This document shows positions 30,001 through 36,000 of a DNA stretch of 48,288 nucleotides, piece by piece; within the stretch, counting starts at the first letter, position 1; every line of letters starts with the position of its first letter. Made by a program: the position numbers. Source of the stretch: a virus. Lineage: Duplodnaviria > Heunggongvirae > Uroviricota > Caudoviricetes. The DNA is taken from IMG/VR virus record IMGVR_UViG_2923307698_000006. One strand, given 5' to 3'.

Positions 30001-33000
30001 AAATCAGATATGGAGTGGGCTGTAGTCCGGAAGCCTGAATGACACACGGGGACTACAGCCCAAGAAATGAAAAAAGGCCACGCAGTTGCGCAGCCTGATA
30101 AACCCTGGTTAAAATCCACACGATAACAACACAACAATATCAGTATCTCATGCTATTGCCCGAACCCATTCGGGCATTTTTTTACCCATAAAAAAGCCCC
30201 TCCGGAGAGGGGCATGTTTGCATGCACATTCTTTTTCTTGCATGGTGCCGGGTGCCTCCCGGTGAATTCAGTATCAGCACCTGAATCCGCGATTACCCCA
30301 TATTCCTTCTTGCTGATTGCCCCACCGCACAGGGGGATTCACCATGCAGAAGTGTTTTTAATAAACAGCAAACAAAAAAATCAAGCATTATGCAGGCTGT
30401 TTCTTTTTATCACCGGCCACAGCAATACCACAATGCCGCAGACCAGCACTCCATCCGCCAGCACCGACATGATCCTGCTGGTGAAATCCACCATCACCAC
30501 TAGAAACAGCAGGAGTGCCACAGCGGCCAGACGCAGTTTTACCGTCACAGGTGGTTCTCCAGTCGCAGGCCAAGAACACCAGCAATCTCTTCCAGAACCT
30601 TACGCTCTTCCGGCTCAATTTCACCATCTGCTTCAGCAATGGCCACCGCCACATCCAGCACATCTTCCGCTTCACGCGTATCGTGTTTCACATCTTCAAT
30701 TTCACGCAACGCTGCACGACGACCAATTTTAAAATTGGTGTCAAGCTGACCTGTGATCGTGGCACTGATGGCATTAATTTCTGACGTAAATGCGGACAAT
30801 GCTGGCTGGTTACGTAATACCTGTTCGATCTTCGCTTTCTCTGAAGTCTCACATTCACCATCTGCATAGGCCACCAGGTAGGCAGCATTAATAACCGCCT
30901 GTGCCAGATCGCGTTTCTCAAACTTTTTAATTTCAGTTGCTGCTCTGCGGGTTTTCTTTTTGAAAATACCAAACATCGTGACTTTTCCTTTTAGTGGGTG
31001 AGCCTGCGCCCGGGGGTGACCAGCCCACAGAGAAAGTCACACTGACCATCCCGTAAGCTCACCCCTGAAAGGCTCTGTGGTTTTTGATGTACGCCGGGCG
31101 TGGCGCGGAAATAAAAAAAAGGTCCGCCAAAGCGAACCTTAAAGATCAGAGAGGGATATTTTTTATTGATGAACAAAATTCAGCCAACCATAAGGTTAAC
31201 TACAAAACAACATGCAAATACACGCTACCTACAACGGCAAGCAGATAAGAAAAATGCAATCGCTACGAAAACCAAACTCAGGATTAATCAGCCAACTGAT
31301 TTGGTCGGCAGTTGTAAATCTCAGCCAGTTTTTCCAGTGTTGATTTTCGCGGAGCTCCTGCTCTCTCAAACTGAGATACGGCTGACTGTTTAACCCCCAG
31401 GCGCTCCGCCACTTCCTGTTGAGTCATTCGCCTGTAAATCCGCCATGCTGCCAACAATGACACATCATCATCAATCATGATGGATACTACTTCATGAGGT
31501 ATTGTTTCATTGTCATTCTCTCCGGCTTCATACTGGATGCTTTCAAAATCATCATCAGGATCTGCCAGACTTAACAGCCGTTCATATTCAGCAACTGACA
31601 TAATGACCCCGGTTCTAACACCGGCATTATCAGTAATAAACTGGACACTGTTTTTCATATCATTGCCTTTCGCGATTGAATGTCGTTCAGCAAACTGGCG
31701 GTCTCCCGCCAGCCTCCCTTAGTATGTGGTTGTGCTTCTGCGCTTAATTTCCTTAATATCCAGGACAACAGGATCACCATCCTCAACATCAAAAATAACC
31801 CTGTACACGCCGACCCTCAAACGGAATCGATTGTCACTCCCTGATAGCTTTTTAAAATCCATGGCTACCAGAGGAAAATCCTTTAGCGCACCGACCTTAT
31901 CCTTTATCGCCTGCCGATACCGCGTATCCACACGAAGTAACTGCTTCAGGGCTGTCCTTGTCCATCGAACCTCAATCATTATCCCCCCCTCTGATTCGTG
32001 AGAAAACATGATTATTTTCGAGAACAACTTTACACCCCATACTTATATATTGCAACAAGACTTATGAAAAAATAAGCATTAATTAATCAATCAACAGCTT
32101 TACACGTCAGAATTTCTCTTATCTCGCTCACCGTCTGCTCAAACCGTTCAGCCTCAAGCTCAAAACGCCTATTGCCCGACGACCAAGCGAAAGCGCGGCT
32201 TTTATCGTGGAACCTGACCCCATAAAAAAGTCGGCAACCAAATCACCCGGACGACTGCTGGCCTCTATTATCTGACGCAACATATCTGCCGGTTTTTCAC
32301 AGGGGTGTTTGCCCGGATAATACTGTACAGGCTTATACATCCAGACATCCGTATACGGAACAGCAGCCGATACAGAAAAATAACGCCGCAAAGATTTGTA
32401 CTCCTCCAGCAGGCTGGCATATTGCCGGTTAAGTTCACTGTATGTGCTGACCAGCTGGTGGTGTGGCTTTTCCAGTTCCCCGCGTTGATGTTTTTCTGCT
32501 GCAACACGCGCAAACAACGCCTGCAGTTTTCTGTAATCATCCTCGTTCGGTAACTGCCACTGGCGGGCACCAAACCAGTGCGACACCATGTTTTTCTTTC
32601 CGGTGGCTTCCGCTATCTGTTTCGACGTTATCCCCAGTGATTCACGCGCATCACGAAAGTAAGAAATCAGCGGAGACATCACATGCTGTTTAAGCTCGCG
32701 CTCCTTTGCCGCATAGCCGCCATTTTTTGGCTGGTATGGCCCCTGATAATGTTCAGCAAACAGAATACGCTCTGTGGCGGGAAAATACGCCCGCAGGCTT
32801 TCCTTACTGCACCCGTTCCAGCGTCCGGACGGCTTCGCCCAGATGATATGGTTCAGCACGTTAAAGCGTTCGCGCATCATGATTTCGATATCAGATGCCA
32901 GGCGATGACCACAGAACAGGTAAAGACTTCCGGCAGGCTTCAGTAACCGCCAGAACTGCGCCAGACACTGGTCCAGCCATTTCAGGTAATCATCGTCGCC

Positions 33001-36000
33001 CTTCCACTGGTTATCCCAGCCTTCGGGCTTCACTTTAAAGTATGGCGGGTCTGTGACTATCAGATCGACAGAGTTTTCCGGTAAGGTCTGGATAAATTCC
33101 AGGCAATCAGCGTTGATTAATTCACAACTGGATATTTTTACAGTATTGACCATAGATCAGTAAGCACTTCTCTGATAGGCTCGTTCTGCTTTTGCGCAAA
33201 GCAGATGGGCCTGAGGTTTGCTTGTGACCCCAACGCATGAGCAGATGGCTGGCAGGTGCCGCTAACACCCACCAGCCGCCCATTACCACAAATAAAAAAA
33301 ACCTTCACTGCGGAAGGCGTCTGTAACAACCGAACTGATAATCTGCCAGACCCGCCATAACAAGCTGGGTCAGTATTAACTGGCAACGTTCGCGTGAAAG
33401 GTAAGTATTCTGCGCAATTTCCCCGACGGTCGCCGGTTCGGTGACGCTTAATTCATTAAACACCACTCTGGCGGTTTCGGTCATATCCTGCTGTTTTAGC
33501 ATGTCTTTTTCCCTTTTCTGGTTAACGTGACATACCAATAACTCTTGTCGAAAAAGCCAGCAAGCTGAAAGACCGGTATTCACAACCACCAGCGCGTTTA
33601 CTGTACTGGCGTGATTTCAGTCATAAAAAAACCCGCCTGGCGACGGGTGTAAAAAATCTTCTAACGTCAGGCATAAAACGCCCATCGTTAGGGCAATTTT
33701 ACCACAGATTCGGGAAAAATCAACAAAGCTATCTGGTCACCTTTTTCAGTTGTTGTTCTGCCCATGCTTCTTCAATATCAAACTGCACCACCAGCGTATC
33801 GTAAAAACGTTTAACTGTTTTTTTCCATGTATCAAGAGATATGGCATCGGTTACATTACATATGGCATTAAATGCCTCCGTTGAAGGTAATCTTTCATAG
33901 CCACGACCACCACAACGCTGGCAGTCTCTGATAACAGGCATACCACGTTTTACCGACTCTTCACGATGAATGGCAACACCGCGCCCACGACAATCTTTAC
34001 AGGCGGTGGAAACCTCCCCCTTCCCTCCACACTCCGGACAGGCAACTTTTACCACCTCCCTGACTTTTTTCCATTCCTCCCAGTAAGACGGATACACGCC
34101 TTTTGTGCACTTTGCCCACACTGGCGGCTTACCATCCGGATACTGGATCTTGTTTGTAAAAACCTCGCTTTCAATAAATTTTTTTCCGTGACAACAGGGG
34201 CACTGTTTTTTGCTCGCCGCGCTACGGGCATAATCTTCAAACGCATACGAAGCCATAATACGCATCACTGCCGGTTTTATTTCTGCCGGGAGTTTTCTTA
34301 ACGCCGCCACGCGATCACACCGACTGAGTGCATATTCTGTCAGCAATTCTGTTGCCCGCTCTCTGTCATTCATACTAATGCCCATTTTCCCAAGGAACGC
34401 AGAAAACCCCATCTCAGCCCAATTCTGTGTCATGCCCTGCGCAGCCATCACATCAGTGATACTCAGCGTATCTTTCGACGTTGAGGCCGATGCATCAGTC
34501 AGGCCGGGGGATTTTGGGGAGTAGTATTTCGGTAAATCTTCCAGTTTCATTTTTTGACCTGCCCTTCAAGCATTATGGGGTAAATCTTCACCCCCAGACG
34601 TCCACCAGATACTGGCTGAGCACGAACGATATTGATTTCATCAAACTGCTCATCGTCCATTAGCAACCCCGCATGCGTCAGCGCATCCAGCGGCGCTTTC
34701 AGAATATTGTCCAAGTCACGGCGGCGCTTATCCGGTGGCTCGGCAATAATCTTTATCGCCAGCCTTCCGGACAGGCTTAATTTCAGCCGCTGCTGGCGAA
34801 CAATAAGCGCCACAGCCCGGCGATAACGCTTTCCCTCCTCCGAGATAAAATATGTGCTGCCACGGCGTCGCCAGTAAGTGTTCACCGTCGGCGGGTAAGG
34901 TAAAACCAAATCTATGAGCATCAGTCACCTCTTTTACCCAAGCACGCCAGTTGCAAAGGCGTGATCAAGAAAACGAAAAATTAAATCAACCTGAGAACCA
35001 TGCTTTTCTTCGAACGCCAGCGGATCCGCATGAAGCTCGTTGTGATGCTCCCGACACAGCGGTAGCGTGAAAATATCGTGAGATTTTGTCCCCATTCCGC
35101 CCTGACCATGACCAATCAGGTGATGGGGATCGTCGGCTGGCTTACCACAACACGCACACGGCTGTGTCTTCACCCAGCGAGTGTATTTCTCGTTAACCCA
35201 GCGGCGACGTTTAGGTCGTTTCATGAAAGATTCCGGAGACTCAGGATCAACGGCAATGCTGACCACCGTCTTTTCCTGTGGTGGGTTCTGTTGCTGGTGG
35301 GCGTGAGGCAGCGGCGCAAGATTTTTTGTGCGCTGTTTCAGTATGCTGGTGGCGGTCTGCTCTCCCGGTACGATGTCGCTTTCACGGTACATGGAGCGGA
35401 TTTTTTCCGCACGCAACCCCAGCGAACGACGTAATACCGCTTCCGGTAGCGCGTCCGCCACCTGATTGCGGACCGCCCACCAGGATAATTCAGCCAGAGA
35501 TAATTCACGCTCCTGCGTACCGCTTATTGCGTGACCGATGACGTCAATCATCCATGCTGACAGGTTTTGATGAGCAAGTTGCTCGAGTGATTCGGATGTC
35601 TGGTCACGCAGCTGGTTGTCGCAGTGCCAGCACAACACCATTGCGCCGGTACCGTAACGGTGAATGACGGTTTCGCTGTGATGATAATCACCGTGTAGCC
35701 ACTGGCAGGATTTCACGTGACGTAATAACCAGTCAGACAGTGCACCAGCGCCACCCGCAGCACGGCTCACCCGCTCATCGCTGAAAAATGGCAGTAGTGA
35801 TTTATCTTCCGCCAGCGGCTGGTGAACGGCAGGTACAACCCCGGACGGCAGAGCTCGCATGCTTTTTGGTTCCGGCTCCACCAGTATTCTGCCGTTATGG
35901 AATGCTGACATTGATTCACGGCCTGGCTTAACGATAACCAGACCGAGTTCCGGTACCAGAACAGGTCGAAGTAATACCCGCACATTACCTCCAGATCCGT

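Follow-up and report, generated by a model that had tools for sequence, protein, structure and literature searches.

A lambdoid prophage cassette with an M.EcoGII-family methyltransferase gene frameshifted by a 2-nt duplication and a conserved structured leader RNA

The window analysed here, a stretch of 48,288 nucleotides (nt) held as IMG/VR virus record IMGVR_UViG_2923307698_000006 (Caudoviricetes), carries on its (-) strand a gene for a beta-class DNA adenine methyltransferase of the M.EcoGII family (32087..33153), and this gene is disrupted by a 2-nt tandem duplication at 32162..32165. It is preceded on the same strand by a conserved structured leader RNA (33151..33292) and by a gene for a winged-helix protein of 65 amino acids (aa; 33305..33502). 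We consider it probable that these three parts form a mobile cassette for an M.EcoGII-type enzyme, and that the copy in the window is a recent pseudogene made by the 2-bp duplication. The cassette would travel in lambdoid prophages of Enterobacterales between the antiterminator gene Q and the lysis or stx genes; intact copies would methylate adenine with little or no sequence specificity, and the enzyme would be made only after Q-mediated read-through of late-operon terminators, whereby the DNA of progeny phage would resist restriction in the next host. The leader would add translational control of the enzyme. In the window copy, the change from TT to TTTT after codon 330 would remove the motif II Glu and the C-terminal helix and leave the product inactive.

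The disrupted methyltransferase gene

The open reading frame (ORF) found at 32128..33153 (-) encodes 341 aa and was matched by Pfam N6_N4_Mtase (PF01555) over residues 29-330 (E=2e-41; 142.8 bits against a cut-off of 26.7), the match ending at profile position 209 of 221; an NCBIfam search placed it in no family above cut-off. By direct reading, motif IV (DPPY) lies at residues 35-38 (33040-33051) and motif I (F-M-G-S-G, the loop for binding S-adenosylmethionine, AdoMet) at residues 310-314 (32212-32226), both being invariant in the alignments, and in an AlphaFold2 (AF2) model of an intact relative the F-M-G-S-G loop was predicted between beta-1 (305-308) and a helix at 315-322. DPPY is N-terminal to FxGxG and the target-recognition region lies between them, which is the beta-class order. 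Chains of solved beta-class enzymes matched the DPPY half and the FxGxG...G-x-E half with E values from 1e-24 to 1e-16. An earlier reading, made from the sequence alone (the sequence-only reading), had proposed an orphan beta-class DNA methyltransferase with its motifs in this order and no restriction gene nearby, and the Pfam match, the residue positions and the annotation of the neighbours, among which (DUF968, RusA, Q, RelE/ParE, helix-turn-helix (HTH) antitoxin, TerB) no restriction nuclease was found, agree with it on each point.

When the frame is repaired, the window protein is identical to M.EcoGII at 295 of 350 residues (84%), which is a lower bound, as the reference (Table S1 of PMC11551740) was machine-read from a PDF with a few reading errors. 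Two database clusters, P0152 and P0163, share 90-93% identity with M.EcoGII and, in that order, 92% and 87% with the window ORF. Because of the 84% identity and the bridging at 87-93% through these clusters, the window gene was assigned as an M.EcoGII orthologue, and by analogy the intact form of its product would methylate adenine non-specifically. According to Murray et al. 2018 (PMC5778455), M.EcoGII and M.EcoGI are non-specific adenine methyltransferases of prophages of E. coli O104:H4 C227-11 and belong to a very large prophage family with DPPY, a central target-recognition region and FxGxG; M.EcoGII was unexpressed in the lysogen and toxic once expressed, and an anti-restriction role was proposed. 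Phage 1720a-02, named in that paper as the bearer of a very similar enzyme, was among the DNA matches to the methyltransferase module of the window. The module was found in 51 phage records, chiefly of Stx2-converting phages, and the family was matched in 2935 of 5426 complete E. coli genomes, with at most 8 copies per genome.

At the lesion, the coding strand reads GTTTTGAG in the window and GTTGAG in every homologue; in DNA and protein alignments, GGCGTTTTGAGC of the window stands against GGCGTTGAGC in phiP27 L24, SfV orf48, PPyecE_EH1910 and E. coli 14EC017. The change is thus an insertion of 2 nt (GTT GAG to GTT TT GAG), by which the TT of all homologues has become TTTT at 32162..32165 (-), or AAAA on the (+) strand. 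The 341-aa product ends in ...AIGVLSLRLNGLSRR (or ...GRRAIGVLSLRLNGLSRR) before its stop codon, and the adjacent frame continues as ELEAERFEQTVSEIREILTCKAVD to a stop codon at 32087-32089; deletion of two T's gives a protein of 354 aa that ends at 32087 and is collinear with the homologues. Both the odd last codons and the plausible helix in the adjacent frame down to 32087 had been pointed out in the sequence-only reading, which were taken there to suggest a 1-nt indel around 32128-32190, possibly at an AAAA run near 32162. Alignment with homologues placed the lesion exactly at that run, and its size is +2 nt; a 1-nt deletion from TTTTT was rejected, as every homologue has TT and G-V-E-L-E. 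Over 32000-33700 the 2-nt insertion is the sole difference from the intact 14EC017 allele, and for this reason the duplication was judged to be recent.

The shift after V330 exchanges E331 and the helix 334-347 for 11 unrelated residues (LSLRLNGLSRR), and the motif II Glu and C-terminal helix survive as an out-of-frame remnant, ELEAERFEQTVSEIREILTCKAVD, at 32087..32161 (-). None of the 120 best database relatives, whose lengths cluster at 348-358 aa, aligns past residue 330 of the 341-aa ORF; the short C-terminus is therefore not shared by homologues, and the frameshift stands. In two alignments, of 7 and of 20 diverse homologues from many genera, G329, E331, E333, R336, F337, Q339 and E343 were invariant. 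The AF2 model of the intact relative shows beta-2 at 326-330 and the terminal helix at 334-347, with a C-terminal predicted local distance difference test (pLDDT) score of 86-93; as the model is weak centrally (pLDDT <50 at 98-144 and 251-286), no fold search was made with it and the C-terminus alone was used. The acid that follows beta-2 in Rossmann-fold methyltransferases (motif II) contacts the ribose of AdoMet, and the solved beta-class enzymes align through the same G-x-E as the window family. The window copy lacks the intact AdoMet-binding half, consisting of the motif II acid and the next helix. Since the shift removes the motif II Glu and the final helix, the window methyltransferase is predicted from conservation and modelled structure to be most likely inactive, a recent pseudogene within a small E. 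coli lineage.

The leader RNA and the winged-helix gene

The spacer of about 150 nt ahead of the methyltransferase gene was more conserved than the flanking coding DNA in six sequences from five genera (E. coli, Shigella, Klebsiella, Buttiauxella and Salmonella). Coding in the spacer, in the form of a 55-aa ORF starting with GTG (33122..33289), was rejected on account of one-nucleotide indels between taxa. Instead, a structured leader RNA of about 140 nt, ending at the methyltransferase AUG, was delimited at 33151..33292 (-), where its covariance model gave the single match in the window (128.8 bits). Its structure is a three-way junction of helices P1 (UGGGC/GCCCA), P2 (GGCUGG.GGGUG/CACCC..CCAGCC) and P3 (xGCU/AGCx'), with a hairpin, P4. 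Across 47 distinct sequences, aligned with plain MAFFT, the junction and hairpin were 96.7% paired with compensatory changes at seven pairs, one pair of P3 being C-G in 22, A-U in 11, U-A in 9 and U-G in 4 sequences; none of 500 shuffles reached the observed values, and slid controls paired at 29-48%. As the G-U pairs fall on the sense strand, the structure was assigned to the methyltransferase mRNA.

Of 46 Enterobacterales loci in a species-level scan, 43 had the leader together with the methyltransferase, at protein identities down to 63%. With the covariance model, divergent copies were also recovered in Pseudocitrobacter, a Vibrio plasmid, an unclassified gammaproteobacterium and Acinetobacter, each ahead of a methyltransferase with 37-60% identity to the repaired window protein, and in these copies whole helices have been swapped compensatorily. 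The alignment fitted to the model, which leans towards the structure, showed compensatory change at 21 of 25 pairs; a few distant sequences, placed in the alignment by the model itself, contribute the strongest covariation. When IMG/VR was scanned with the enzymes of two distant loci (L157 and L151), mostly copies of the Enterobacterales type and one weak new match (L179) were recovered. The methyltransferase copies of Erwinia tracheiphila and Enterobacter sp. Bisph1 (L141; L155) are truncated and their leaders still intact. In a Trabulsiella locus (L103, 2025-2193), the 5' half of the leader recurs in a weak, incomplete second copy ahead of an unrelated ORF (nhmmer E=9e-4; 16.7 bits with the covariance model).

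Folding of single sequences (window leader, -61.5 kcal/mol, z = -3.4) favoured another fold, with a helix P5 (GGUCA.AAGC / GCUU..UGAUC) immediately before the AUG. P5 was well conserved (95.7% paired) and showed no compensatory double changes, and as a hypothesis it may bury the start region. By direct reading, the methyltransferase AUG has no well-placed Shine-Dalgarno sequence, and it is also open to pairing within a helix; for these reasons a layer of translational control by the leader is probable, and the leader would act as a translational switch. No leader match was obtained from Rfam 15 in the window at E<=10, nor on the leaders of L112, L144, L151, L153 and L157 at E<=1; weak Rfam matches at 33584-33716 were set aside as terminator look-alikes. 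A full-text literature search for the core sequences of the leader returned unrelated papers only. The leader is therefore apparently undescribed, and it is the only seemingly new element of the locus. We give an even chance to the proposal that it represents an undescribed class of cis-regulatory RNA governing phage anti-restriction methyltransferase operons, in which P1-P3 and P5 would form the two folds of a switch that responds to a ligand or protein, perhaps to the enzyme or the winged-helix protein, perhaps to a metabolite such as AdoMet.

In Enterobacterales the leader directly precedes the methyltransferase gene; in Vibrio, Acinetobacter and other Gammaproteobacteria it precedes a Com-like gene. 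A small zinc-ribbon ORF resembling Com follows the leader, just upstream of the methyltransferase start, in each of the three loci that are most distant (L151, 2865-3050; L157, 2820-3008; L153, 2835-2945), and in L151 and L157 it overlaps that start, as com overlaps mom in phage Mu. The Com-like ORFs of L151 and L157 matched Pfam Zn_ribbon_Com above threshold (34.7 and 48 bits), and that of L151 shares 51% identity with Mu Com. In Mu, Com activates the translation of mom, a toxic late modification gene, and the link to Com supports the view that the enzyme family is under layered post-transcriptional control. The spacer of the window (33153-33305) contains no Com ORF, the one-nucleotide indels between taxa excluding coding there, and the leader covariance model had no match on the com-mom region of Mu. 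The methyltransferase gene of the Vibrio plasmid (L153) is split into two ORFs, 2956-3438 and 3447-4019.

The product of the 65-aa gene (33305..33502, (-)), annotated as a 'TrmB family transcriptional regulator' or as hypothetical, was matched by phrog_331 (PHROG 331, of unknown function; E=1.4e-37) and, below cut-off, by TrmB (E=0.0026), and NCBIfam assigned it to no family. AF2 predicted a three-helix winged helix (H1-H2-H3 with a beta-hairpin wing) at a pLDDT of 92.9. In the sequence-only reading this gene had been described as arranged like a controller gene with no nuclease to control. The winged-helix gene itself is supported by the model and by conservation, but the reading of it as a restriction-modification controller is not: the protein has no HTH_3 match and is modelled as a winged helix in place of an Xre/Cro-type HTH, no nuclease gene was found in any cassette examined, and the gene is missing from about one third of the related cassettes.

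It is accordingly unlikely that the winged-helix protein is a dedicated controller of the methyltransferase, whether as a C-protein-like factor or as an RNA-binding activator acting on the leader. The gene does lie upstream on the same strand in each of the 73 IMG/VR loci, with the spacing constant at about 150 nt, it is present in Klebsiella, Buttiauxella and Salmonella prophages despite their differing other neighbours, the sequence of its product is highly and widely conserved, and small winged-helix-like ORFs also precede the leader in two distant loci, L144 and L153. In the scan of one genome per species, however, a homologue was detected in only about 27 of 43 loci with leader and methyltransferase, the rest having unrelated genes upstream, and a hairpin resembling a terminator stands between the small gene and the methyltransferase. 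Winged-helix folds can bind RNA, and a SelB domain was among the fold matches, but these matches were to generic winged-helix domains with E of about 1e-3. The 65-aa gene is thus best described, from its distribution, as a frequent but dispensable partner in the cassette. Upstream of it, a non-coding block at 33510-33600 (-) reading …CTTGCTGGC…AGAGTTAT..GTATGTCA…AAAAAG.CATG is kept across E. coli, Shigella, Klebsiella, Buttiauxella and Salmonella, and may be the small gene's own promoter or operator.

Standing of the disrupted copy and its late-operon context

That the disrupted gene is still functional, either through an active 341-aa enzyme or through a programmed -1 frameshift or transcriptional slippage at GUUUUGA, is highly improbable. 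DPPY, the target-recognition region and the FxGxG loop all precede the shift, and by direct reading a -1 shift after GUU UUG gives GVLELEAERF..., with one extra residue only; the residues lost are nevertheless invariant across genera, and neither of the features of a programmed frameshift that were looked for, a slippery heptamer and a two-frame arrangement kept in homologues, was found. The site reads GGC GUU UUG AGC in place of a canonical X XXY YYZ heptamer, the sister allele GUUGUGAGC has no slippery run, no homologue uses a frameshift here, all those without the insertion being single-frame, and a run of four T's is far too short for efficient transcriptional slippage.

Scarcely credible, and rejected here, is a homopolymer error of sequencing or assembly in a genome whose gene is intact, for although the lesion sits within a T-run, five near-identical complete E. 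coli genomes have the intact TT allele, and exact-pattern scans of species-representative genomes and IMG/VR gave no further match to the TTTT allele, the identical 341-aa product with TTTT recurs in four independently deposited assemblies, the allele of a related contig is +2 without a homopolymer, and a +2 error in a 2-base run would be an unusual type of error.

By exact-sequence look-up, the 341-aa product was found under two NCBI accessions on five contigs. TTTT was present in all four assemblies retrieved, which come from different projects (GCA_000461135.1, GCA_003604815.1, GCA_052417455.1 and GCA_038435545.1), and the fifth record is a contig of about 5.05 Mb. As the allele recurs in at least four independent assemblies, re-sequencing is unneeded to exclude an error. 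The intact protein, otherwise identical, occurs on 251 contigs, which marks the broken allele as a minor lineage variant. A protein scan of IMG/VR, as distinct from the exact-pattern scans, brought up the related contig IMGVR_UViG_2698536450_000008 (L011), which is 99.92% identical to the window over 7.6 kb and has GTTGTGAGC at the site, a +2 allele with one base different. This allele arose either by a substitution after one duplication or by a second, independent 2-nt duplication at the same spot, and because it is +2 under either origin, the frameshift was taken as biological.

The genes of the (-) strand follow one another in the order DUF968, RusA, Q, 65-aa gene, methyltransferase, RelE/ParE toxin, HTH antitoxin, TerB, esterase and lysis genes, and the window as a whole is a prophage of lambdoid type: it has an integrase gene, Q, and genes for lysis and tail, and in the syntenic genome the prophage adjoins potC. 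Q (Pfam Antiterm) lies at 33729..34550 (-). Directly after its stop codon, a consensus scan marked a sigma-70-like sequence (TTGATT-16-TAAAAT with TG; 33696..33723, (-)) as a candidate for the late promoter pR', and, between Q and the small gene, a hairpin with a 7-bp stem (5 GC pairs) and the T-tract TTTTTTT (33621..33648, also delimited as 33631-33648, (-)) as a candidate tR'. A terminator is annotated at the place of the candidate tR' in phage SfV, and the hairpin is kept across genera. A second terminator-like hairpin with a T-tract (33290..33318, also delimited as 33301-33318, (-)) overlaps the stop codon of the small gene and covaries across genera (columns 3-8 with 15-21). SfV has the same layout as the window, with annotated terminators at the corresponding places. 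In phiP27, PPyecE_EH1910 and 1720a-02, too, Q is followed by the pair of small gene and methyltransferase and then by the lysis or stx genes, and the layout recurs in Klebsiella, Buttiauxella and Salmonella prophages with three unrelated Q families. A comparative paper on pR' (PMC6266700) mentions neither the methylase nor the small gene.

Because the methyltransferase gene sits behind two terminator-like hairpins downstream of Q, its expression would be late only and dependent on antitermination by Q. This position agrees with the silence of M.EcoGII in the lysogen, its harm on expression and the anti-restriction proposal, as given in PMC5778455. The sequence-only reading had offered an anti-restriction or an epigenetic enzyme; the first role gains from the 84% identity to M.EcoGII, and an epigenetic role in the lysogen is disfavoured by the late-operon terminators, the silence of M.EcoGII and the broken copy. 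For the same reasons, comparison of the methylomes of a lysogen and a cured strain would be uninformative.

Several points weigh against the pseudogene-cassette explanation or against parts of it. The loss of activity is predicted from conservation and modelled structure, and the methyltransferase model is poor overall (mean pLDDT 63) and confident in its C-terminal part only. Low-level -1 ribosomal slippage at GUU UUG A may occur and would restore the frame. Non-specificity was measured for M.EcoGII itself, of which the window protein is an 84% identical relative, so that its extension to the intact form is by analogy. The promoter and terminator calls are consensus matches, and since promoter-like sites were no commoner than in shuffled sequences, the candidate pR' was assigned mainly from its position after Q.

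As it stands, the finding is an ordinary one, another and broken copy of a methyltransferase family that is characterised, marketed as a reagent and matched in more than half of the complete E. coli genomes. The frameshift is nevertheless a genuine lineage marker, so that the annotation should read pseudogene in place of a 341-aa enzyme, and phage released by the window prophage would presumably be without the broad protection against restriction with which intact relatives are credited. In many Shiga-toxin phages the cassette lies between Q and stx, where modulation of read-through or translation bears on the silencing of toxic M.EcoGII-type enzymes. The M.EcoGII papers noted, and did not resolve, how the enzyme is kept silent; the leader RNA is a concrete and testable element for this question.

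Other features of the window were recorded as follows. Directly downstream of the methyltransferase lie the genes for the RelE/ParE-family toxin and HTH antitoxin (31284-31979, (-)) and then TerB (30545-30976), where phiP27 and Stx2 phages have their tRNA and stx genes. A 162-nt unit is repeated 3.7 times (90% matches) at 17821-18413 inside a 407-aa ORF (17355..18578), which overlaps a 454-aa ORF (18575..19939) by 4 nt, the two together being annotated as a 'frameshifted portal protein' in the syntenic 14EC017 prophage. Direct repeats of 30 nt resembling iterons (40185-40274) lie inside a replication-initiator-like ORF (39647..40624) and probably mark the prophage origin. Synteny with E. coli 14EC017 places the type III effector gene nleB2 at the left end (228-1208, (-)), with remnants of nleC and nleH nearby in that relative, and integrase, excisionase and the potC junction at the right end; from these two ends the window was identified as an effector-carrying lambdoid prophage.

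Comparison with known systems

The solved beta-class enzymes (8urk/9c3u, M.RsrI, CcrM and M.MboIIA), which match the window family over the DPPY and FxGxG...G-x-E halves, differ from it in that the central region (about residues 116-280) is unaligned and in that they are sequence-specific. C-proteins of restriction-modification systems are Xre-type HTH proteins that time nuclease expression via C-box operators. The 65-aa gene resembles theirs as a small gene for a DNA-binding fold just upstream of a methyltransferase on the same strand, whereas its product is a winged helix, no nuclease is present, and the gene is dispensable in many related cassettes.

With com-mom of phage Mu the cassette would share a harmful late anti-restriction gene for DNA modification whose start region can be buried in mRNA structure; in contrast, the cassettes of the window and of Enterobacterales are without a Com ORF, and Mom is not a methyltransferase. 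Hia5, Hin1523 and Nma1821 are non-specific adenine methyltransferases that stand in place of Mom in Mu-like prophages (Drozdz et al. 2012, PMC3299994). They resemble the family of the window as prophage-borne non-specific N6-methyladenine (m6A) enzymes that are silent in the lysogen and presumed to act in anti-restriction, and they differ in belonging to a Dam-related class according to PMC3299994, in being paired with Com, and in residing in Mu-like rather than lambdoid prophages.

M.EcoGII and M.EcoGI agree with the window gene in the beta-class order, a length of about 350 aa, a full-length identity of 84% or more, residence in an enterobacterial prophage and the lack of a partner nuclease; the window copy differs in being +2-frameshifted after residue 330 and hence probably inactive. 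The M.EcoGII papers, in the passages searched, mention neither an upstream winged-helix gene nor a leader RNA. The same cassette stands downstream of Q in phiP27 (L23-L24), SfV (orf47-orf48) and many Stx2a, Stx2c and Stx2d phages, at 80-93% DNA identity. The copies of these phages, unlike that of the window, are intact and 350-354 aa long, and in the Stx phages tRNA and stx genes come after the cassette, where the window has the RelE/ParE-HTH toxin-antitoxin pair and TerB.

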